Both the position numbers and the translations under genes were made by a program. Below, one piece after another: positions 1,161-54,409 of a stretch of DNA of 64,000 nt. The stretch is from Clostridia bacterium. GTDB lineage: Bacteria > Bacillota > Clostridia > TANB77 > CAG-508. The stretch is taken from the NCBI GenBank assembly GCA_029258515.1, contig JARHYK010000002.1:19476-83475 (forward strand), written 5' to 3'. The notes beneath the pieces were generated by a model. That model made no database searches, had not been told where the DNA came from, and saw only the letters and a list, made by a program, of their open reading frames with translations. Positions within the stretch are counted from its first letter, which is position 1. Each line of letters starts with the position of its first letter.

Positions 1161-2480
1161 TTGTTTAAAACGATAAAAAACGCTTTAAAGACACCAGAGG
1201 TTAGAAAAAAATTAATTTATACATTACTATTAATAGTAGTATTTAGATTAGGATGCTTTATAACAGTACCAGGAGTTAATAATATTGCTTTAAATGAAGC
1301 AATGTCATCAGCTAATGGAGTTGCAGGATTAATCAATATGATTTCCGGAGGAGCTTTTTCAAGATTTTCTATATTTGCGATGACAATAACTCCATATATA
1401 ACAGCATCAATTGTTATTCAACTACTTGCTATGATTGTGCCAGCTTTAGAAAGATTAACTAAAGAAGGCGGAGAAGAAGGTAGAAAGAAGATTAACAAAT
1501 ATACAAAGATAATTACAATTATATTAGCTTTAGTAGAAGCGATAGGATTATTTTTATCTTATAAAAATGCTGGAATATTTGTTGATAATACATTTATGAC
1601 AGCAGTAACTGTAATAGTTTCATTAGTTGCAGGTACATCAATTTTGATGTGGCTTGGAGACCAAATAACAAATAAAGGAATTGGAAATGGTATTTCAATT
1701 ATTATATTTGTAGGTATTGTATCAGGTTTACCAGGTTTTGCAACAACATTATGGGGATTAATGTTTACTGAAAGTGGATTTAGTACAACAGGTCTTTTAT
1801 TGATGTTAGGACTTATATTAGGTTCAATAATATTAATTGCAGCAGTTGTATTTGTACAACAAGCTGAAAGAAAAGTACCAGTACAATATTCAAAAAGAGT
1901 AGTTGGAAGAAAAATGATGGGAGCACAAAATACACACATACCATTAAAATTAGCAATGGCAGGTGTTATGCCAATTATTTTTGCTTCATCATTTATGACA
2001 TTCCCAGCAATGATTATACAAATGTTTGTAAAAGACATTGCTACAAAAACAGGATTTTGGGCAGGTGTATATAAATTTTCAATTGCTACATCAACATCAA
2101 ATGTAGGAATTGGATATTCAATAGGAAATGCGATAGTATATTTATTATTAATATTAGGATTTACATTTTTCTATACATATGCAACATTCAATCCAGCAGA
2201 AGTATCAGCTAACATTAAGAAAAATGGTGGATTTATACCAGGAATAAGAGCTGGAAAACCAACAACAGAATATTTATCATCAATAATATCAAAATTAACA
2301 TGGTTTGGAGGATTATTCTTAGCAATAATTGCAATATTGCCAATGTTACTAAGATTTACAAACCTAAATATTGCATTTGGTGGTACATCAATATTAATTT
2401 TAGTTGGAGTTGCATTAGAAACTGTTCAACAATTAGAATCTCAATTAGCAATGAGACATTACAAAGGATTTTTGGAATAG
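1161..2480 (+). CDS. secY: preprotein translocase subunit SecY (TTG start overlapping the rplO stop)
   Basis: 439-aa polytopic membrane protein. The N-terminus MFKTIKNAL...LGCFITVPGV is conserved in SecY. Its position after rplO is canonical. Confidence 0.93.
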   Translation: MFKTIKNALKTPEVRKKLIYTLLLIVVFRLGCFITVPGVNNIALNEAMSSANGVAGLINMISGGAFSRFSIFAMTITPYITASIVIQLLAMIVPALERLTKEGGEEGRKKINKYTKIITIILALVEAIGLFLSYKNAGIFVDNTFMTAVTVIVSLVAGTSILMWLGDQITNKGIGNGISIIIFVGIVSGLPGFATTLWGLMFTESGFSTTGLLLMLGLILGSIILIAAVVFVQQAERKVPVQYSKRVVGRKMMGAQNTHIPLKLAMAGVMPIIFASSFMTFPAMIIQMFVKDIATKTGFWAGVYKFSIATSTSNVGIGYSIGNAIVYLLLILGFTFFYTYATFNPAEVSANIKKNGGFIPGIRAGKPTTEYLSSIISKLTWFGGLFLAIIAILPMLLRFTNLNIAFGGTSILILVGVALETVQQLESQLAMRHYKGFLE

Positions 2481-2496
2481 AATCAAATAAATATAA

Positions 2497-2530
2497 AAAA
2501 TCTGTAGTTTTAAACTATGGATTTTTTTTA
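2497..2530 (+). terminator. Rho-independent terminator after secY (hairpin with two G.U pairs, then a T8 run)
   Basis: aaaatctgtagttt..aaactatggattttttttat: an 11-bp stem followed by a T-run. Confidence 0.45.
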
Positions 2531-2977
2531 TATATTATACATGAGAAAATAAAACTAGTATAAAGACTAATCAAAGATAGATATCTTTTGTGTACCTTGG
2601 TTGAAAAGATCAAAGTAGATAGGTGGGCTTTTTTCTTTGAAAATATTTTAATAAAAGAATAGTAACTTTTAAGGATTTTGAAATAGTTACGTGTAGATTT
2701 TTAAATAAAATATTAGGAAATATATTTGAAGGAGGTAATTGAAAATAATGAATAATAGGGAGAATAAGAAGGTTAGGAGATGAGAATAAAGAGATGTATC
2801 AAAAAATAGAGAGGAAAATTATATGTACTCAAGAAAAAAATAGAAATGATATGTAGATAAACTGTGATAGAAAATTTAAAAGATAAAATGAATTCAAAAT
2901 TTATTCAAAACTTATAAATAAAGATTCCCCTAAAAATTGTTCAATAATAGGCATGCCAATTTTTAATTTTGTTTTTA

Positions 2978-3006
2978 TTGACTTTTATTGTATTAATATA
3001 TATAAT
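2978..3006 (+). promoter_or_regulatory. Consensus sigma-A-type promoter (TTGACT-17 nt-TATAAT) driving the inserted LRR surface-protein gene
   Basis: TTGACT at 2978-2983, a 17-nt spacer, then TATAAT at 3001-3006. This is about 125 nt upstream of the ATG at 3134. Confidence 0.5.
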
Positions 3007-3133
3007 ATCCTTGATATGACATAAGTGTCAGGTTTAAAGTTTAAAAAATTGTGAAAACTACATTATATTTAGCTTCAAAAGATAAAAATATATTTAACTT
3101 TACTATTAGAAAAATTTAAGAGGAGAGTAAAAA

Positions 3134-5056
3134 ATGAATAAGAAATCAAATGGTATTACACTAGTAGCTTTAGTTATTACAATAATTGTACTTTTAATAT
3201 TAGCAGGTGTAACAATTGCAACATTATCGGGAGATAGCGGAATACTAACAAATGCAGCTAAAGCTAAAAAAATGGCATTGTTATCACAGTACAAGGAAGA
3301 ACATGAAATGTTTTTAAATGAGCAATTATTAAAAAATGATAATTTTAAAAAAGTAAGTTTAGTAGCTGGTGAGACAAATTTAATATATAATACACAAGAA
3401 GAAGGAGAGACTGGTAATATTTATGATGTAATACCAAGTTTAAAAAATAACGATTTTAGTACAAAGTTAGAGATAATAAAAGGAGAATTATTATTAAATA
3501 CAAAAGATCCAAAAGAAATAAAAATGGCGCAAAGTATAGGAATTCAAGTAAATCCATATGATATAGTAGATGGAGAACTATTATCATCAAATGGAAATTT
3601 ACTATTAATGGATGAAACAGGAACAGTAACAATACCTGATAATGTAACAAAAATAGGAGAAGGAGCATTTGCAAATCTAAGTGGATTAAAAACAATAATA
3701 ATACCAGGAAGTGTTAAAGTAATAGGAGTAAATGCATTTAGAAACAATCCAACATTAGAAAAGGTTATTATAAAAGATGGACTTGAAAGAATTGAAAACA
3801 ATGCTTTTACTTCTTGTGAAAATCTAATAGATATAATTATGCCAGATAGTATAACTTTAATGGGTCAAGAAATATTTATGTCTTGCTATAAGTTAAAAAA
3901 TGTTAAGTTGAGTGAAAGTTTAATAAGTTTACCAAGATTTACATTTCATGCATGTATCTCTTTAGAAAAAATAAAAATACCAGATAGGGTAGAAAGATTA
4001 GAAGATAGATGTTTATCTTCATGCCCCAAATTAAATAATATAATCATAAATCAAAATATAACATATATTTCTAGTAGTGCTTTTTCAGATTGTGATATAT
4101 TAGAAAATATATATATTAGCAATAATCCAAATTTTGTATATGAAAATGGAATATTAATGCTCAAAAGTAAAACAGAGATATTATTTATATCTAGTAAAAA
4201 ATTGAACGAAAATAATGTATTTAAAATTCCAGAAGGAATTACTACATTTAATATAAGTATTTCAGCTAATAAAAATATAGATACAATTATTATACCGAAA
4301 AGCTTACAAGAAGTAGGAAATAGTCAGAGTGGTATATTTCCGATGAGTGTAAATAATATACAAGTAACTGAAGGAAATATGAATTTTATTGTTAAGAATA
4401 ATACGCTATATTCAAAAGATGAAAAAAAATTAATACTTTGCTTTGAAAAGGGAAGAACAGTAAATATATTACCGACAGTAGAAGATATAGAAATGCAAGG
4501 ATTTGGATTAGCACCTAACTTAGTAGAAATAAATTTACCAGATAGTGTTAAAAATATAAAACAATTTGCAATAATAAAATGTATAAAGTTAGAGACAATG
4601 AGAATTGGTAAAAATGTAACATATATAGATCCATTATTCCAATATAATAATACTACTTTAAATTTAATAATAGATCCTTTAAATCAAAATTATATAGTAG
4701 AAGATTTTGTTTTATATAATAAAGATAAAACAGAATTAATGACAACTTTAAAACCTAATCCTGGAAAATTTTTAGTAAAAGATACTGTTAAAGTTATAGG
4801 CAGTCTAGCGTTTTATAATAAAAGAGAGATAACTGAAATTATTTTACCCGAAGGACTTACTGAAATAAAAAATTCATTTGGTTATTGTTCTTTTAATAAA
4901 ATAGAAATTCCAAGTACAGTTAATACAATAAGTATAGCGGCATTTGCTAATAACCCAAATCTTTCTCAAATAATAATAAATAAACCCCCAAATAGTATAT
5001 CTGGGGCACCATGGGGAGCAGCAAAAGGAAATAGAATAGTAGAATGGAAAAAATAA
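3134..5056 (+). CDS. BspA-type leucine-rich-repeat (LRR) surface protein with an N-terminal pilin-like hydrophobic segment
   Basis: 640-aa ORF with RBS AGGAGAG. The N-terminus MNKKSNGITLVALVITIIVLLILAGVTIATLSG resembles a prepilin/class-III signal segment. The body consists of repeated ~22-aa LRR units (IPDNVTKIGEGAFANLSGLKTIIIP.SVKVIGVNAFRNNPTLEKVII...) typical of the BspA/Treponema-type LRR family. There is no LPXTG motif. Confidence 0.7.
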   Translation: MNKKSNGITLVALVITIIVLLILAGVTIATLSGDSGILTNAAKAKKMALLSQYKEEHEMFLNEQLLKNDNFKKVSLVAGETNLIYNTQEEGETGNIYDVIPSLKNNDFSTKLEIIKGELLLNTKDPKEIKMAQSIGIQVNPYDIVDGELLSSNGNLLLMDETGTVTIPDNVTKIGEGAFANLSGLKTIIIPGSVKVIGVNAFRNNPTLEKVIIKDGLERIENNAFTSCENLIDIIMPDSITLMGQEIFMSCYKLKNVKLSESLISLPRFTFHACISLEKIKIPDRVERLEDRCLSSCPKLNNIIINQNITYISSSAFSDCDILENIYISNNPNFVYENGILMLKSKTEILFISSKKLNENNVFKIPEGITTFNISISANKNIDTIIIPKSLQEVGNSQSGIFPMSVNNIQVTEGNMNFIVKNNTLYSKDEKKLILCFEKGRTVNILPTVEDIEMQGFGLAPNLVEINLPDSVKNIKQFAIIKCIKLETMRIGKNVTYIDPLFQYNNTTLNLIIDPLNQNYIVEDFVLYNKDKTELMTTLKPNPGKFLVKDTVKVIGSLAFYNKREITEIILPEGLTEIKNSFGYCSFNKIEIPSTVNTISIAAFANNPNLSQIIINKPPNSISGAPWGAAKGNRIVEWKK

Positions 5057-5083
5057 TATATAAATAAATGAAAAAATGCATTT

Positions 5084-5118
5084 AAAAGCTAAAATATCTT
5101 GATATTTTAGCTTTTTTG
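5084..5118 (+). terminator. Rho-independent terminator after the LRR gene
   Basis: aaagctaaaatatc-ttg-atattttagcttttttg: a perfect 13-bp stem plus a T-run. Confidence 0.55.
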
Positions 5119-5165
5119 TAGTAGAATAAAAATATGTTTAATATAAAATGTGAGGAGAGATTTTA

Positions 5166-5828
5166 ATGGTTATAGTGATGTTAGGAGCACCAGGAACTGG
5201 TAAGGGAACGGTAGCAAGTTTATTAGAAGAAAAAGTAGGAATTAAACAAGTATCAACAGGAGATATATTTCGTAAAAATATAAAGGAACAAACAGAACTT
5301 GGAAAGATTGCAGAAGAATATATTTCAAAAGGAAATTTAGTACCAGATGATATTACAATAGGAATTGTAAAAAATAGATTAGAAGAAGATGATGTTCAAT
5401 CAGGAATAATATTAGATGGATTTCCAAGAACAGTAAAACAAGCAGAAGAATTAGATAAGATTTTGGATGAAAAAGGTAAAAAGGTTGATATGGTATTAAA
5501 CTTAACGACACCGGAAGAAGAAATAATCGAAAGAATTGTAAATAGAAGAGTATGTTCAAACCAAGAATGTAAAGCGGTATTTAATGTAACAATAAATCCA
5601 TCAAAAGTTGAAGGAATATGTGATAAATGTGGAAGTGAATTAGTACAAAGAAAAGATGATAATGTTGAAACAGTTAAAACAAGAATTCATAATTACATGG
5701 AACAAACAAATCCGTTAGTTAAATATTATGAATCTAAAGGTATACTAAGAACGGAATTAGTTAGTAAGACAACAAATCATTTAGGAGAAGATGTTGCAAA
5801 CGAAGTTGTGGCAGATATAAAAAAATAG
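5166..5828 (+). CDS. adk: adenylate kinase
   Basis: P-loop GAPGTGKGT, an LID domain with the Zn-binding CSNQECK...CDKCGSEL motif, and the conserved position after secY. Confidence 0.9.
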   Translation: MVIVMLGAPGTGKGTVASLLEEKVGIKQVSTGDIFRKNIKEQTELGKIAEEYISKGNLVPDDITIGIVKNRLEEDDVQSGIILDGFPRTVKQAEELDKILDEKGKKVDMVLNLTTPEEEIIERIVNRRVCSNQECKAVFNVTINPSKVEGICDKCGSELVQRKDDNVETVKTRIHNYMEQTNPLVKYYESKGILRTELVSKTTNHLGEDVANEVVADIKK

Positions 5829-5862
5829 CTATTGGAATAGAAGTCAGAAAGGAAGAATAACG

Positions 5863-6633
5863 ATGGTAACAATAAAGTCAAAAAAAGAAATAGAATTGAT
5901 GAAAGAAGTAGGAAAAGTTGTTGCGAAATTATATGAAAAACTAGAGAAAGAAATAAAACCAGGAATGACAACACTAGAATTAGATGAGTTAGCAGAAAGA
6001 ACAATGAAAGAATTAGGAGCTGAGCCAGCACAAAAAGGTTATGATCCAGGAATAAGAGGAGTACCTAAATTTCCATCTTCAATATGTGTATCAATAAATG
6101 ATGAAGTAATTCATGGAATACCATCTAAATATAAAGTTATACAAGAAGGAGATATAGTTAGTGTAGATACTGTTGCATTAAAAAATGGATATAATGGAGA
6201 TGCTGCAAGAACATTTGCAGTGGGCAAGGTATCAAAAGAAGCTCAAAGATTAATTGATGTTACAAAGCAATCATTTTATGAGGGGATTAAATATGCAAAA
6301 CCAGGTTATAGAATAGGAGATATATCACATGCAATAGGAGAATATGTTCATAGTCAAGGATATTCAGTAATAAGAGAATTCCAAGGACATGGAATAGGAA
6401 AAGAAATGCATGAAGATCCAGGAATTCCAAATTATGGAAAAGCAGGTAGAGGATTAAGACTAGAACCAGGTATGACATTAGCGATAGAACCAATGGTAAT
6501 ACAGGGGAAACCAAATATTTTAGAATTGGATGATGGATGGACAATAGTCACAGAAGATGCTAGTTTGGCAGCACATTATGAAAATACTGTATTAATTACA
6601 GAAAATGAGCCAAAAATATTGACAATTATTTAA
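5863..6633 (+). CDS. map: type I methionine aminopeptidase
   Basis: 256-aa protein with the metal-ligand motifs DIVSVDTVA, HGIGKEMHE and LAIEPM. Canonical position after adk. Confidence 0.9.
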   Translation: MVTIKSKKEIELMKEVGKVVAKLYEKLEKEIKPGMTTLELDELAERTMKELGAEPAQKGYDPGIRGVPKFPSSICVSINDEVIHGIPSKYKVIQEGDIVSVDTVALKNGYNGDAARTFAVGKVSKEAQRLIDVTKQSFYEGIKYAKPGYRIGDISHAIGEYVHSQGYSVIREFQGHGIGKEMHEDPGIPNYGKAGRGLRLEPGMTLAIEPMVIQGKPNILELDDGWTIVTEDASLAAHYENTVLITENEPKILTII

Positions 6634-6721
6634 TTATGATGTATACTTAAATAGTTACAATGCAAAATAGGGATATTTTGCATACTGGAACGTTAAAAAA
6701 CTTTGTATAGGAGGTAATAAA

Positions 6722-6940
6722 ATGGCAAAAGAAGATGTCATAGAAGTAGAAGGAACAGTTGTTGAATCACTACCGAATACAAATTTTAAAGTGGAACTAG
6801 AAAATGGGCATCAAATATTAGCACATATTTCTGGAAAACTAAGAATGAACTATATTAAAATATTACCAGGAGATAAAGTAAAAGTAGAACTTTCTCCATA
6901 TGACTTAACAAAAGGTCGTATAACATGGAGAGGAAAATAA
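6722..6940 (+). CDS. infA: translation initiation factor IF-1
   Basis: 72-aa protein [19 protein letters not shown]..., a near-universal IF-1 sequence. RBS AGGAGG. Confidence 0.92.
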
Positions 6941-7728: not shown

Positions 7729-8124
7729 ATGGCTAAAAATACAACAAGAAAACCAGTAGCTAGAAGAAATAGAAAAAACATCGAAAAAGGAGCAGCACAT
7801 ATTCATTCTAGTTTTAATAATACAATAGTAACAATTACAGATACACAAGGTAACGCAATATCATGGGGAAGTGCAGGAGAATTAGGATTCAAAGGTTCTA
7901 GAAAAAGCACACCATATGCAGCTGGACAAGTTGCTGAAACAGCAGCAAAAGCAGCAATGGAACATGGATTAAAAAGTGTTGAAGTATATGTAAAAGGACC
8001 AGGTTCTGGTAGAGAAGCTGCAATAAGAGCTTTACAAACAGCAGGTCTTGAATTAAGTAGCATTAAAGATGTTACACCAATACCACACAATGGTTGTAGA
8101 CCACCAAAAAGAAGAAGAGTTTAA
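7729..8124 (+). CDS. rpsK: 30S ribosomal protein S11 (start at MAKNTTRK)
   Basis: Conserved S11 body ([15 protein letters not shown]...[13 protein letters not shown]...). RBS AAGGAGGG lies upstream of the ATG at 7729. Confidence 0.9.
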
Positions 8125-8168
8125 TTAATATTATAATATATAATACATGTCAAGAAAGGAGTAAGAAA

Positions 8169-8795
8169 ATGGCAAGATATAAAGATGAACAATGTCGTAT
8201 TTGTCGTAGAGCAGGACAAAAATTGTTCTTAAAAGGTTCAAGATGTTATTCAGATAAATGTAGTATATCAAGAAGAAATTATGCCCCAGGAGAGCATGGA
8301 CAAAAAAGAGCAAAATTATCTGAATATGGAACACAATTAAGAGAAAAACAAAAAACAAAATCATATTATGGAGTCGGAGAAAAACAATTCAGAAAATATT
8401 TTGAAATGGCTTCAAGCAAAAAAGGAGTAACAGGTGAAAACTTATTACAAATATTAGAAAGTAGATTAGATAATGTTGTATATAGATTAGGATTTGGAAC
8501 ATCTAGAGCACAAGCTAGACAATTTGTAAATCATGCGCAATTTGAAGTAAATGGTGTTACTGTTGATATCCCATCATACTTAGTTAAAGCAGGAGATGTT
8601 ATAACAGTTAGAGAAAGCAAAAAAGATAATGCGACATTAAAAGTAAATGTTGAAGAAGCTAAAAATAGACCAATACCAACATGGTTGGAAAAAGATAACG
8701 AAAAATTAAGTGGTAAAGTAGTAAGATTAGCAGCAAGAGAAGATATAGACTTACCAATAGAAGAACACTTAATAGTAGAGCTTTACTCAAAATAA
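8169..8795 (+). CDS. rpsD: 30S ribosomal protein S4
   Basis: [31 protein letters not shown]... (zinc-finger S4 N-terminus). 208 aa. Confidence 0.92.
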
Positions 8796-8911
8796 TAGAT
8801 GTATTAAAAAATAAGTGTAAAGGTTTAATCAAAACTTTAAAATTTTACTTAAAAAAACCGGGAAAGTTCTTAAAAGAAGTGAGATGGGATTTCTCATATT
8901 AGGAGGTAAAA

Positions 8912-9859
8912 ATGATAGAATTTGAAAAACCAAATATTGAATGTCTAGAATTAGATGAATCATGTAATTATGCAAAATTTGTTTGTGAACCATTAGAAAG
9001 AGGATATGGTGTAACAATAGGAAACTCACTAAGAAGAATATTACTTTCATCACTTCCAGGATGTGCAATAACAAGTGTAAAAATTGACGGTGTAATGCAT
9101 GAATTTTCTACAATAGCAAATGTAGTAGAAGATGTACCAGAAATTATAGTTAACTTGAAAAATGTAAGATTAAAATCTGATGATGTTGAAGAAAAAATAT
9201 TAAGAGTGGATTTTAAAGGAGAAGGAGAAGTTACAGCTGCTGATATCATAACAGATGGTACAGTAGAAGTATTGAATCCAGAATTACATATTGCAACAGT
9301 GTCAGAAGGTGGACATTTAAAGATGGAAATGACAGCAGATAAAGGAAGAGGATATAATTCAGCAGAGAAGAATAAAAAACCAAATCAAGATATCTCTATA
9401 TTACCTATTGATTCAATATATACACCAGTTAAAAAAGTGAATTATCAAGTAGAAAATACTAGAGTTGGACAAATGGTTGATTATGATAAACTTGTAATTG
9501 AAGTATGGACAGATGGAAGCTTAAAAGCACATGAAGCATTAAGTTTAGCTGCAAAAGTAATGACAGGACATTTAGAATTATTTATTGATTTATCAGAAAC
9601 TACAAAAAATACTCAAGTTATGATTGAAAAAGAAGAATCAAAGAAAGAAAAAGTATTAGAAATGTCAATAGAAGAACTTGAATTATCTGTTAGATCTTTT
9701 AACTGTTTAAAAAGAGCAAATATTGCTACAGTTGAAGATTTGATAGCAAAAACTCAATCAGAAATGATGAAAGTTAGAAATTTAGGTAAAAAATCTTTTG
9801 ATGAAGTTACAGCTAAATTACATTCATTAGGTTTAGACTTTGCACAAGAAGATGAATAA
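8912..9859 (+). CDS. rpoA: DNA-directed RNA polymerase alpha subunit
   Basis: 315 aa. The N-terminal dimerisation domain ([18 protein letters not shown]) and the C-terminal alphaCTD ([15 protein letters not shown]) are present. Confidence 0.93.
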
Positions 9860-9891
9860 ATAAAAAGCAATAAAAAAGGAAGGTGAACAAA

Positions 9892-10419
9892 TTGGCAACA
9901 AATAGAAAGCTTGGAAAAGCAACAGATATTAGAATGGCTATGTTAAAAAACTTAACAACTGATTTATTAGTACATGGAAAAGTTGAAACAACATTAGCAA
10001 GAGCTAAAGAAGTAAAAGCTATGGCAGATAGTTTAATTTCATTAGCAATAAAAGAAAAAGATAATTTTGAAGAAGTTGAAGTTATGATCAAAAAAGCAAA
10101 ATTAGATTCAAAAGGAAATAAAGTAACTGAATTAGTAAAAAGTAAAAATGGTAAAGAATATCTTAGAGTTGTAAAAGAAGAAGTTAAAGAAAAAAGACAA
10201 AAAGATATGCCATCAAGATTAAATGCAAGAAGAAAAATGATGAAAACATTAAATAAAGTAAAAGATAGCGAAGGAAATGCTATAGATGTACCAGCAAAAT
10301 TATTTAACGAAATTGCACCAAAATATGCAGGTAAAAATGTAGGTGGATATACAAGAATAGTTAAAGCAGGTCCAAGAAGAGGAGATAGCGCAGAAGTTGC
10401 TATATTACAATTAGTTTAG
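9892..10419 (+). CDS. rplQ: 50S ribosomal protein L17 (probable TTG start at 9892; the ORF-track GTG at 9883 overlaps the RBS)
   Basis: ...NRKLGKATDIRMAMLKNLTTDLLVHGKVETTLARAKEV... matches the L17 core. RBS AAGGAAGGTG ends 6 nt before the TTG. The C-terminal region is longer than in typical L17. Confidence 0.8.
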   Translation: MATNRKLGKATDIRMAMLKNLTTDLLVHGKVETTLARAKEVKAMADSLISLAIKEKDNFEEVEVMIKKAKLDSKGNKVTELVKSKNGKEYLRVVKEEVKEKRQKDMPSRLNARRKMMKTLNKVKDSEGNAIDVPAKLFNEIAPKYAGKNVGGYTRIVKAGPRRGDSAEVAILQLV

Positions 10420-10423
10420 AATA

Positions 10424-10459
10424 AAAAAATAGTTAGAGTAAATTCTAACTATTTTTTTG
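10424..10459 (+). terminator. Rho-independent terminator ending the alpha operon after rplQ
   Basis: aaaaaaatagttagag-taaatt-ctaactatttttttg. Confidence 0.55.
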
Positions 10460-10530
10460 TTTAAAATAACTAGACATATTATGTAATATATAGTAAAATA
10501 TATATAATTTGATGAACAAGGAGTGAAAAA

Positions 10531-51446: not shown

Positions 51447-51505
51447 TATAAAAAGTAAAGGGACACTTTTTTAAGGTGTCTTTTTTCTTTTGGAAAGAGA
51501 GCAGT

Positions 51506-52375
51506 ATGAAAAGTTTAGAAGAAAATAGATATTGGATTTGGTTAAGTTTGATACCAAATTTAGGAAGTATAAAAAAACAAAGATTGTTAGAAGGATTTGG
51601 TAGTCCGGAAAAAATATATATGGCTAATAGAAGTGAACTAACAAATACTAATATAGTAGGAGAAAAAGTAATAGATTGTATATTGGACAATAAAACAAGA
51701 CAAAAAATAAAGTATCATTTGAAGTACTTAAAGGAAAATGAAATAAAGATTGTAAATTATATAGATGAAGAATATCCATCTTTACTAAGAGAAATTTATG
51801 ATTATCCTATTAGTTTGTATGTTAAAGGAAATATAGATGTTTTAAACAAGAAAGGGATTGCAATAGTAGGGTGTAGAGATTTTAGCGAATATGGTGAAAA
51901 TTGTGCGAAATATTTTGGGTACAATTTGGCTAGAAATGATATTTTAATAATAAGTGGATTAGCAAAAGGAATTGACAGTTTTTCACATATAGGAGCCTTA
52001 GGTGCGAATGGAAAGACAGTAGCTGTGTTAGGAAATGGTTTGGATAGTGTGTATCCAAAGGAAAATGTTGAACTTGCTAAAATGATAGTATCAAAAGGAG
52101 GAGCGATTATTTCAGAATATCCTTTAGGAACCAAACCTTTAAAAATGAATTTTCCTGCAAGAAATAGAATTGTAAGTGGAATGTCAAGAGGGGTATTAGT
52201 TGTTGAAGCAAAAGAAAAAAGTGGAACCTTAATAACAGTTGATTTTGCGTTAGAACAAGGAAGAGATATTTTTGTAATTCCAGGAAATATTAATTCTAAA
52301 AATTCGGTAGGAACAAATAGATTAATAAAAGAAGGGGCTAGATTAGTTACTTGTTATCAAGAATTATTAATATAA
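51506..52375 (+). CDS. dprA: DNA-processing protein DprA (Smf)
   Basis: The Rossmann-like DprA core (IVGCRDFSEYG...SGLAKGIDSFSH...RNRIVSGMS) is conserved. Start assigned to MKSLEEN. Confidence 0.8.
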   Translation: MKSLEENRYWIWLSLIPNLGSIKKQRLLEGFGSPEKIYMANRSELTNTNIVGEKVIDCILDNKTRQKIKYHLKYLKENEIKIVNYIDEEYPSLLREIYDYPISLYVKGNIDVLNKKGIAIVGCRDFSEYGENCAKYFGYNLARNDILIISGLAKGIDSFSHIGALGANGKTVAVLGNGLDSVYPKENVELAKMIVSKGGAIISEYPLGTKPLKMNFPARNRIVSGMSRGVLVVEAKEKSGTLITVDFALEQGRDIFVIPGNINSKNSVGTNRLIKEGARLVTCYQELLI

Positions 52376-52681: not shown

Positions 52682-52710
52682 TTGACAATATATCAAATAT
52701 CTTGTATACT
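52682..52710 (+). promoter_or_regulatory. Consensus sigma-A promoter (TTGACA-17 nt-TATACT) for the tRNA cluster
   Basis: TTGACA at 52682-52687, TATACT at 52705-52710, about 20 nt upstream of tRNA-Val. Confidence 0.55.
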
Positions 52711-52729
52711 TAATCTCGTCGGAAGACAT

Positions 52730-52805
52730 GGTCGCTTAGCTCAGCTGGGAGAGCATCTGCCTTACAAGCAGAGGGTCATAGGTTCGAGCCCTATAGCGAC
52801 CACCA
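52730..52805 (+). tRNA. tRNA-Val (anticodon UAC)
   Basis: GGTCGCTTAGCTCAGCTGGGAGAGCATCTGCCTTACAAGCAGAGGGTCATAGGTTCGAGCCCTATAGCGACCACCA: a complete cloverleaf with encoded CCA. Confidence 0.9.
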
Positions 52806-52813
52806 TGTTTTAC

Positions 52814-52890
52814 GGCCCGGTAGTTCAGTTGGTTAGAACGCTAGCCTGTCACGCTAGAGGTCGACGGTTCGAGCCCGTTCCGGGTCGCCA
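52814..52890 (+). tRNA. tRNA-Asp (anticodon GUC)
   Basis: GGCCCGGTAGTTCAGTTGGTTAGAACGCTAGCCTGTCACGCTAGAGGTCGACGGTTCGAGCCCGTCCGGGTCGCCA. Confidence 0.9.
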
Positions 52891-52901
52891 TTTTTATATA
52901 T

Positions 52902-52977
52902 GGCTTCATAGCTCAGTTGGTAGAGCAGGGGACTGAAAATCCCCGTGTCAGTGGTTCGATTCCACTTGAAGCCACCA
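52902..52977 (+). tRNA. tRNA-Phe (anticodon GAA)
   Basis: GGCTTCATAGCTCAGTTGGTAGAGCAGGGGACTGAAAATCCCCGTGTCAGTGGTTCGATTCCACTTGAAGCCACCA. Confidence 0.9.
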
Positions 52978-53656: not shown

Positions 53657-54409
53657 ATGTATATAAAAGATATTCATATAGGAGTTTATGCAGTTGCGAT
53701 AATAATGTCTATATTTATTGGACAATTTGTTGATTGGGCAAATAAAAGGATGCCTGAATATAAAAAGGTTATCTCAAAAGATATTTTTGTAGAATATAAA
53801 ATGAATTTTAAACCGAATTATTTATTAATGTTTATAATTGCAGTTATAAATGTAATGCTAATATATGTAATAGGGATAAAATCAACTTTAGTAGGAAATT
53901 TGGATCTAATAAAATATTTAATAATAACTCCAATGTTGATATCAGCATTTGTGATAGATTATAAATATCAAATTATTCCTAATAGATTAAATTTAGTCTT
54001 GTTAGAAGTAGGAATTGTGTTTGCATTTTTATATGGATTATCAGATTTTGCAATAACATTAAATTATATATTTGGAATGTTAGTAGGGGGAGGAATATTT
54101 TTATTAATTACAGTAATAGGTGGCATGATTTATGGTAAAGAGGCAATGGGCTTTGGTGATGTTAAAATGATGGGAGCTCTTGGACTATTATTTGGATTAT
54201 CAAATATATTAATAATAACATTAGTTTCATTTTTAATAGGAGCTGTTTTAAGTATAGTCTTATTAGTAGCCAAAATTAAGAAATCGGATGAATATATTCC
54301 ATTTGGACCATTTATAGTACTTGGCACATTTTTAAGTATGTATGTACCATTTGAAGTAATAAAAAATGTATTAATGCAAATATTTACATTAGGGTTATAT
54401 AATAAATAA
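53657..54409 (+). CDS. A24-family type IV prepilin peptidase
   Basis: 8-TM protein with the second catalytic-Asp motif GFGDVKMMGALG. No pilin/assembly genes lie adjacent. Confidence 0.75.
   Translation: MYIKDIHIGVYAVAIIMSIFIGQFVDWANKRMPEYKKVISKDIFVEYKMNFKPNYLLMFIIAVINVMLIYVIGIKSTLVGNLDLIKYLIITPMLISAFVIDYKYQIIPNRLNLVLLEVGIVFAFLYGLSDFAITLNYIFGMLVGGGIFLLITVIGGMIYGKEAMGFGDVKMMGALGLLFGLSNILIITLVSFLIGAVLSIVLLVAKIKKSDEYIPFGPFIVLGTFLSMYVPFEVIKNVLMQIFTLGLYNK

Follow-up and report, generated by a model that had tools for sequence, protein, structure and literature searches.

A probable insertion of a leucine-rich repeat surface-protein gene between secY and adk in a Clostridia bacterium, and its widespread pilin-like N-terminal module

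Results

The secY-adk junction in the window and in related genomes

The window analysed here is a stretch of 64,000 nucleotides (nt) from a Clostridia bacterium (GCA_029258515.1, contig JARHYK010000002.1, positions 19,476-83,475 of the forward strand); feature coordinates are window positions. Between secY and adk it carries a segment of 2,685 nt (2481-5165) with a gene for a leucine-rich repeat (LRR) protein. Comparison with related genomes indicates that this 2.7-kb segment is probably a lineage-specific insertion of a stand-alone, monocistronic surface-protein gene, at a junction that was already a transcription-unit boundary. The insertion itself is of little weight; the part worth following is the N-terminus of the encoded protein, a widespread pilin-like module for which there is no curated model.

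A SecY-based scan in which each species was represented by a single genome gave 80 loci from uncultured, low-GC Clostridia of the gut, whose SecY proteins are 74-88% identical to that of the window and whose titles include Clostridium sp. CAG:343, CAG:440 and 27_14. Both secY and adk are present in 72 of these relatives, and 77 loci were informative for the genes carried at the junction. The secY-adk gap has a median length of 195 nt in the 72 relatives and does not exceed 450 nt in 66 of them, and none of the 72 has an LRR_5 homologue at the junction. An earlier, preliminary description of this DNA had proposed that the gene was inserted between secY and adk, to be judged by its presence or absence at the junction in related genomes; that comparison bears the proposal out. 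The parts that it had listed between the end of secY (2480) and the start of adk (5166), namely an AT-rich spacer, a TTGACT-17-TATAAT promoter, a 640-amino-acid (aa) LRR gene and a terminator, were all recovered at the positions that it gave (Table 1).

A hairpin of -8 kcal/mol or stronger with a U tract within 80 nt after secY, the criterion used for a post-secY terminator, was found in 64 of the 72 relatives, where the hairpins are GC-richer than that of the window. The hairpin of the window, which the preliminary description did not contain, starts 6 nt past the secY stop codon and is likely an intrinsic, possibly bidirectional terminator that would insulate the insert from secY read-through. 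On the other side of the segment, the block cTTGAtAttt...TTTGTAGTAgAAT stands 40-75 nt upstream of adk in seven close relatives (L007, L009, L018, L033, L036, L043 and L059). Alignment finds the same adk-promoter block in the window at 5099-5127, within a stretch (~5090-5130) for which L043, L033 and L036 have an alignable counterpart immediately before adk; in a blastn search of the downstream flank against all fetched loci, only the stretch just before adk matched relatives. On this alignment the predicted adk promoter, also new to the description, is read as ancestral and not as part of the insert. The hairpin that follows the LRR gene shares its 3′ arm with the adk promoter (-35 element and spacer), which puts the right border of the insert at ~5098; the LRR terminator would have been built against the old adk promoter. 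A terminator after secY and a separate promoter for adk imply that the ribosomal cluster was already split at secY-adk; in this clade it appears to be physically split after secY, and probably also transcriptionally. Because the window retains both the post-secY hairpin and the adk promoter, the inserted gene looks insulated and monocistronic.

The preliminary description had further suggested that the insertion couples an adhesin gene to a very highly transcribed ribosomal superoperon. This part was not supported, given the hairpin after secY in the window and in most relatives, the width of the gap and the separate promoter of adk. Were the gene a member of the superoperon, no terminator or promoter would be expected between it and the flanking genes; hairpins are predicted at 2486-2536 and 5084-5115, and promoters at 2978-3006 and 5099-5127. 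High co-expression by read-through from secY is improbable, even though the LRR gene lies on the same strand as rpsE-rplO-secY and adk-map-infA and the post-secY hairpin is AU-rich and might leak. Against it stand the stability of that hairpin (-14.6 kcal/mol, with a U8 tract, 6 nt after the stop codon), terminators of the same kind in the 64 relatives, a non-coding spacer of 440 nt followed by a dedicated promoter that matches 11 of the 12 positions of the sigma-70-type hexamers used for scoring, and the division of the cluster by the promoter of adk. The insert would supply its own promoter, a 5′ untranslated region (UTR) of ~120 nt and a Shine-Dalgarno sequence, and with its own promoter and the bracketing hairpins the gene would most likely be expressed autonomously and not by ribosomal-operon read-through.

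The gene order of the S10-spc-alpha supercluster is kept around the insert, with rpsE-rplO-secY and adk-map (5863-6633)-infA-rpsM-rpsK-rpsD-rpoA-rplQ on the same strand. Unlike that supercluster, the clade has a gap, a terminator and an adk promoter at this point, and the junction accepts foreign genes or rearranges. Other cargo is present in ~11 of the 77 informative relatives. L008 has four genes of glycosyltransferase type (4.9 kb), L019 has Hpt and sensor-like genes (4.3 kb), L015 a PDDEXK_2 gene, L028 a gene for a membrane protein, L086 a two-gene unit (2 kb), L036 a small minus-strand open reading frame (ORF) and L080 a prophage-like element that includes an integrase as well as a module-bearing gene in truncated form, while the junction is rearranged outright in L054, L073 and L084. 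The secY-adk junction is therefore a recurrent site of insertion or rearrangement.

Several points weigh against the reading of the segment as a lineage-specific insertion between existing signals. In one relative (L076), a gene with the same N-terminal module starts 580 nt after secY, where the contig then ends, so that an older insertion common to part of the clade is possible. The strict adk-promoter motif occurs in only 7 of the 72 relatives; promoter-like sites with at least 9 of 12 matches are not above chance in the region (29 observed, 25 expected); and the promoter of the LRR gene and both terminators are predictions from sequence. The L076 gene, which shares this junction and follows a spacer about as long as that of the window, and the truncated module-bearing gene at the L080 junction would also suit an old, vertically inherited arrangement from which the other relatives have lost the gene. 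Such an arrangement is very unlikely: the junction is empty or holds unrelated cargo in 66 of the 72 relatives, among them the top three in SecY identity whose junction is informative (L008 and L018, 88%; L054, 87%), many independent clean deletions would be needed, and blastn does not align the L076 spacer with that of the window.

Hardly any credence can be given to the LRR gene being the cargo of a phage, plasmid, insertion sequence or integrative and conjugative element. A prophage-like element with an integrase does occupy the L080 junction, in L089 an integrase directly adjoins a module-bearing gene where a prophage ends, and the GC content of the insert is below that of its flanks; but 2481-5165 contains no integrase, transposase, long terminal repeat or convincing target duplication, and tblastn against 50,697 phage and 72,556 plasmid records gave only matches of 23-32% identity over the LRR part that left the N-terminus uncovered. 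A scan of viral contigs with the N-terminus returned one locus only, a prophage edge. The sole candidate for flanking repeats left by transposition, a 16-nt AT-only inverted match (2523-2538/5053-5068), was judged to be a low-complexity chance match.

A family member (43% identical) lies 2.9 kb upstream of adk-map-infA in a human-gut species (L100), between smpB and glk/miaB-like genes (4992-6917; 9840-11769), an arrangement repeated in L099, L105, L107-L109, L116, L121, L128, L135 and L152. It was considered as the same insertion and ruled out, as there is no secY within 5 kb and the secY-adk linkage is broken in that species.

The secY/adk boundary in this clade is thus best described as a transcription-unit break that tolerates foreign genes, and an adjacency that is otherwise highly conserved is not conserved here. 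With the boundary already a break, no special expression coupling is needed for the LRR gene, and its insertion would be an ordinary accessory-gene gain at an operon boundary.

Signals within the segment

The TTGACT-17-TATAAT site is the best-scoring promoter site in the region, and a site with 11 of 12 matches turned up in ~5% of 300 dinucleotide shuffles of the 653-nt spacer, from which chance was estimated. Sites with 11 of 12 matches also lie at a similar distance (-144) from the homologous genes L005a and L006, and one with 10 of 12 at -168 from that in L002. The palindrome that follows the -10 element could be a hairpin at the 5′ end of the mRNA or an operator; it is not conserved upstream of homologues, and alignment of the 200 nt upstream of five family members gave no conserved 5′ UTR element. 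An invertible promoter was considered and rejected, as no inverted repeats bracket the promoter and only the local palindrome at 3017-3030 was found.

The spacer part between the post-secY hairpin and the promoter (2537-2977) is purine-skewed, with a GC skew of up to 0.6, and has no plus-strand ORF of at least 50 aa other than one of 87 aa (2300-2563) that runs across the 3′ end of secY in a different frame. An Rfam search of 2300-5400 gave as its best match a chance-level HrrF (E=0.22; 24.8 bits against a gathering score of 77), and by this search the spacer contains no riboswitch or leader RNA. Blastn of the spacer against all fetched loci and the rest of the window returned no similarity, and the spacer is unique in this set. 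The hairpin downstream of the LRR gene was missed by a scan for consensus terminators because its stem has fewer than three G-C pairs.

Table 1 Predicted features of the secY-adk segment and its flanks, and the A24 peptidase gene of the same window
Feature	Position	Strand	Description
secY	1161-2480	+	439-aa ORF; upstream flank
AT-rich spacer	2481-3133	.	653 nt; GC 19-25% against 28-33% in flanking genes
Putative terminator hairpin with A-run and T-run flanks	2486-2536	+	inverted repeat; RNAfold -14.6 kcal/mol, U8 tract
Sigma-70-type promoter of the LRR gene, TTGACT-17-TATAAT	2978-3006	+	-35 at 2978-2983, -10 at 3001-3006; 11/12 matches
Palindrome TGACATAAGTGTCA	3017-3030	+	perfect 5-4-5; directly 3′ of -10; first stem in the 5′ UTR fold
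Shine-Dalgarno sequence GAGGAG	3120-3125	+	8 nt before ATG at 3134
LRR gene ORF	3134-5056	+	640 aa
N-terminal module	3134-3268	+	residues 1-45: basic leader MNKKSNG, hydrophobic helix I8-L31, SGDSGILTNA motif
Helical stalk and small alpha/beta linker domain	3242-3613	+	residues 37-67 and ~68-160
LRR solenoid	3611-5053	+	residues ~160-640; ~20 turns of ~23 aa; regular beta strands in model
LRR-gene terminator hairpin (predicted)	5084-5115	+	perfect 15-bp stem and T run; RNAfold -14.6 kcal/mol
adk promoter (predicted), TTGATA-17-TAGAAT	5099-5127	+	10/12 matches
adk	5166-5828	+	220-aa ORF; downstream flank; 46-79% identical to adk of relatives
A24 prepilin-type aspartic peptidase	53657-54409	+	250 aa; PF01478, E=2e-19, only domain found

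The LRR protein and its family

The 640-aa product matches the Pfam family LRR_5 (PF13306) in four stretches with 216.3 bits, against a cut-off of 27.7 (E=1.2e-64). An AlphaFold2 model built from 37 homologues has a predicted local distance difference test score (pLDDT) of 91 and consists of a helix (residues 10-32), a four-residue break (SGDS), a second helix (37-67), a small alpha/beta domain extending to ~160 and LRR turns up to the C-terminus. The DNA repeats of the LRR-coding part are spaced 69 nt apart, and the family alignment shows a conserved C-terminal cap, GAPWGAxKGxRxVEW. In a Foldseek search of the PDB, the model matched 4gt6 (E=1.9e-13), an LRR surface protein of F. prausnitzii, and 4cp6 (PcpA; E=6.5e-13), as well as 4fs7 and 4h09, which like 4gt6 are LRR cell-surface proteins of gut bacteria. 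By both profile and predicted fold the protein is a member of the BspA-type LRR family, and the preliminary description of the locus as a BspA-type LRR gene equipped with a promoter and a terminator agrees with the profile match and the signals located here, to which a ribosome-binding site is added. The match to the HupY/LrrG LRR adhesin model (NF047961; 68.6 bits against a cut-off of 1250) was set aside as generic LRR similarity.

The protein shares its LRR_5 family with BspA of Tannerella forsythia, PcpA and 4gt6, its predicted solenoid superposes on 4gt6 and 4cp6, and its role is expected from the domain type to resemble that of BspA-type proteins, as a module with which host-associated bacteria bind ligands outside the cell. 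A C-terminal sorting domain serves for attachment in BspA, and choline-binding repeats do so in PcpA. The window protein has neither device and instead carries the pilin-like N-terminal module, the helical stalk and the linker domain. Its translation ends in ...GAPWGAAKGNRIVEWKK, without an LPXTG motif or a hydrophobic C-terminal tail, and Pfam gave no wall-binding domain (choline-binding or SLH) at E<=0.1, so that translation and domain search agree with the earlier observation that LPXTG and wall-binding repeats are missing. We infer a cell-surface location and ligand binding from the hydrophobic N-terminal module and the domain type.

Altogether 3,752 homologues were detected, and the best 120 are nearly all full-length (~640-680 aa), with 41-69% identity. 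They are solitary genes in unrelated contexts, such as mgtE/ftsY (L001), PDDEXK_2/helix-turn-helix (L002), a tandem pair (L005), upstream of an M23 peptidase (L006), fmt/asp23 (L087), ispF/rpsF, where the gene has decayed into fragments (L088), and smpB/glk (L100); this also applies to the closest homologues (69% identity). A metagenome scan with the single window protein gave no matches, and one with the family alignment gave 80 loci. Several homologues (P0019-P0029, P0072, P0098 and others) have long predicted N-terminal extensions containing YTHTHTHT, which arise because an (AC)n repeat upstream of the real start is translated; the window gene has no such repeat.

A pilin-like N-terminal module shared by many proteins

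The N-terminus of the window protein reads MNKKSNG↓ITLVALVITIIVLLILAGV..., where the arrow marks the position following the Gly at -1, and has Ala instead of Glu at +5, as the preliminary description had noted in calling it pilin-like. When the first 60 residues were searched against 1.84 billion representatives of 50%-identity clusters (E<=1e-3), 17,214 clusters matched, almost always at the N-terminus of proteins 64-706 aa long. Neither the N-terminus nor the occupied junction is thus the singular feature that the description had implied, the former recurring in all these clusters and the latter holding other cargo in the relatives described above.

The consensus of the N-terminal 45-60 residues is (K/N/R)-G↓ITLIALVITIIVLLILAGV(T/S)IAxL(T/S)G(D/E)NGIL(T)xA. 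Among 148 representatives, Gly at -1 is found in 146, Ile at +1 in 141, Thr at +2 in all 148 and Ala at +5 in 146, and Gly26 is found in 148 of 148 and Gly29 in 146 of 148 (processed numbering). Residue -2 is mostly K, N or R, and the leader before the Gly ranges from 3 to 95 residues. In 117 members of the LRR family, residue -1 is Gly in 103 and Ala in 14, with Ile at +1 in 113 and Ala at +5 in 112. The uncharged hydrophobic stretch of the window protein, I8-L31, is 24 residues long and is followed by a GxxGI(L/I)T motif. Identity within the module exceeds 90% over ~35 residues, whereas the remaining parts of the proteins are unrelated, with a mean column identity of 9%. In the 77 representatives of at least 200 aa, the Pfam domains fused to the module are LRR_5 (22), Flg_new (7), DUF285 (6), FGE-sulfatase (3), Big_2, lectin-like and further domains, all of which are typical of extracellular proteins judging by domain type. 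A large share of the LRR and other extracellular proteins of these gut Clostridia begin with one stereotyped pilin-like N-terminus.

A canonical prepilin N-terminus has the form KG↓FTLIELLVVIAIIGILAAIA. Set against it, the module forms KG↓ITLIALVITIIVLLILAGV and KG↓ITLIALVITIIVLLILAGVTIA have lost Phe1 and Glu5, and the module looks to be derived from a type IV prepilin N-terminus. Like a class III signal, it has a basic leader ending in Gly at -1 and about 20 uncharged hydrophobic residues next; in place of the usual Phe or Met at +1 and the Glu at +5 of pilins it has Ile1 and Ala5. The N_methyl model (PF07963) matched the window protein below threshold (14.8 bits against a cut-off of 21.2; E=0.021) and 8 of the 77 module-bearing proteins at E<0.001. 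For ten short module proteins all matches to NCBIfam were sub-threshold, with TIGR01710 (GspG) in 7 of 10 and occasional PpdD, PilA and FliL-like matches, and no NCBIfam pilin model, including TIGR02532, was reported for the window protein. No model in Pfam or NCBIfam covers the module beyond sub-threshold matches to N_methyl, GspG, PpdD, PilA and FliL. A full-text literature search for the module peptide strings found no paper with the motif, and a keyword search returned general papers on type IV pili and nothing on the module or on LRR proteins with prepilin-like N-termini.

Genes with the module were also seen elsewhere in the sampled loci. In five related species, a module gene with a non-LRR C-terminus starts ~260-510 nt downstream of rplQ, where the alpha operon ends (L013, 14162; L030, 14587; L052, 14824; L065, 14068; L079, 14439), and in L049 (9991) one starts ~600 nt after adk. 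The eight module matches in the 990 kb sampled are not clearly above the genome-typical interval and are therefore not read as enrichment. In L080 the module gene is truncated right after the helix (...LILAGITNI, then stop; 9886-9999) and lies tail-to-tail with a phage-type integrase gene (10087-11355, minus strand), and the viral contig L089 has a similar integrase gene (1373-2557, minus strand) at the prophage edge, tail-to-tail with a module gene (27-1184) that is full-length and also encodes an FGE-sulfatase-like domain; conserved module-coding DNA might serve as an integration target. The module alone also makes up many database ORFs of 45-86 aa, some of them on contigs longer than 100 kb (P0270-P0383). 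In L087 the gene (8001-9592) is split by a frameshift in a poly-A-rich stretch coding for KAKEK just after the module, where the window gene has an in-frame A7 tract (3268-3274). The split gene and the module-only ORFs could reflect homopolymer sequencing error, gene decay or slipped-strand phase variation.

The A24 peptidase and the search for pilus genes

The peptidase encoded at 53657 has the GFGDVK motif and the upstream Asp of A24 enzymes. In Pfam it shows no DiS_P_DiS, zinc-finger or methyltransferase N-domain, and it was assigned to no NCBIfam family. Its homologues in the clade are 73-88% identical over 248-251 aa, about as conserved as SecY, and the peptidase gene belongs to the core genes of this clade. 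HAD phosphatase, A24 peptidase, pepP and efp follow one another in this order again in contigs of the Clostridium sp. 27_14 type (L170/L171, 10001-10753), where no pilus genes lie within 10 kb of the peptidase gene. The peptidase had been described as a lone one, which its PF01478 match and the absence of pilus genes around it confirm. Motif searching and ORF reading of the whole window gave no PilB, PilC or PilM and no pilin with Glu5, and no filament machinery was found around family members or around the peptidase gene, in contexts annotated with Pfam or read as ORFs. The window does encode a ComF-like phosphoribosyltransferase with a double zinc ribbon (13789-14436) and DprA (51476-52375), so that natural competence and a Com pilus encoded elsewhere are possible.

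Discussion

From its composition and conservation, the most likely role of the module is that of a membrane anchor, and the N-terminus would act most like a class III signal or pilin anchor. It would insert N-in/C-out in the cytoplasmic membrane and keep the protein on the cell, the helical stalk and small domain would carry the LRR domain outward, and the solenoid would bind a host, mucus or microbial ligand. That the A24 peptidase removes the leader after Gly7, and that the module serves as a surface-display anchor and not as a pilus subunit, is plausible but falls somewhat short of probable. As Glu5, the residue on which canonical pilins rely to assemble filaments, is lost, the trimmed protein would remain a membrane-anchored pseudo-pilin without polymerisation. 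The link between peptidase and module is put forward as a hypothesis, and two points weigh against it: the peptidase may serve only a competence pilus encoded elsewhere, with canonical substrates there, and Sec-type cleavage is possible, either after the invariant Gly26 (processed numbering) or, in some members, at T-I-A.

The latter point leads to an ordinary, if unusually conserved, Sec signal peptide that is cut by signal peptidase I, leaving the LRR protein released or loosely associated with the wall. Such a signal would fit the basic n-region, the hydrophobic core and the small residues preceded by a Gly (in the window protein GV-TIA↓T), the invariant Gly26 could be its -1 residue, and signal peptides of Gram-positive bacteria are long. 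This is nonetheless unlikely, as the 24-residue uncharged stretch is as long as a membrane-spanning segment, conservation is missing at the T-x-A site (57 of the 117 family members have Asn where residue -1 would be), identity above 90% over ~35 residues in front of unrelated mature parts is atypical of Sec signal peptides, and the leader before the Gly varies from 3 to 95 residues. Less likely still is a true modular type IV pilin, cleaved by the A24 peptidase and presented on a type IV or Com pilus, at its tip, comparable to the tip pilins without Glu5 (GspK, S. sanguinis PilA) and the modular pilins PilB and PilC. Loss of Glu5 is known for filament-capping pilins (PMC9934059), and the window protein resembles the S. 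sanguinis modular pilins PilB and PilC, as well as GspK/PilK and PilA, in its Gly at -1, ~21 or more hydrophobic residues and a large adhesive module. In contrast to these pilins, its gene has no pilus machinery nearby, whether PilB, PilC, PilM or a Glu5 pilin within the 64 kb or filament genes in the contexts of family members and the peptidase, Ile1 and Ala5 are near-invariant, and the module occurs in thousands of families and at times in several copies per 14-16 kb stretch, which exceeds the need for a tip subunit. The pilin-fold test also scored below significance, and a conserved GxxGI(L/I)T motif, which to our knowledge does not occur in pilins, follows the module. Lacking Glu5, a pilin profile score above threshold and pilus machinery in the contexts covered, the protein is not, on present predictions, a demonstrable type IV pilin.

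A display anchor of this kind has a conceptual counterpart in archaea. There, unrelated extracellular proteins such as the sugar-binding proteins of Sulfolobus carry class III signals, with a prepilin-like N-terminus that has no need of Glu5, and are processed by PibD or EppA, peptidases without a methyltransferase domain. The likeness is one of concept and not of sequence comparison, and the host here is bacterial. Tentatively, and with doubt clearly outweighing confidence, we propose that the module represents a large bacterial class of Ile1/Ala5 prepilin-like signals, processed by a stand-alone, methyltransferase-less A24 peptidase and serving as a pilus-independent display anchor. If this were true, the hydrophobic stub would be a general display device for LRR, Flg_new, DUF285, FGE-sulfatase-like and Ig-like proteins in reduced-genome gut Clostridia, and a bacterial counterpart of the archaeal class III surface proteins. 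If the A24 peptidase processes the module, sequence could serve to predict surface proteomes across many gut Firmicutes, and the module would offer a testable example of a prepilin signal that has been turned from building filaments to anchoring.

Further observations in the window

Two frameshift-like breaks lie within 1.5 kb of each other. The recD2 ORF (11556-13583) stops inside the conserved ...TIHKSQ↓GSEF... motif and continues in another frame (GSEFDVVILVVPP...TGITRAKK...), which looks like a 1-nt insertion near 13572-13576, in either a frameshifted pseudogene or an assembly error. A KAP-family P-loop NTPase likewise appears to be split, into a 98-aa ORF with the Walker A motif (14473-14769; PF07693, E=4e-8) and an overlapping 568-aa ORF in another frame (14741-16447) without a Pfam match. 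Further along, the translation of an 84-aa ORF (52682-52936; …GRLAQLGEHLPYKQRVIGSSPI…RRFEPVPGRH) resembles tRNA genes read as protein, which suggests a tRNA cluster between dprA and the HAD phosphatase gene.

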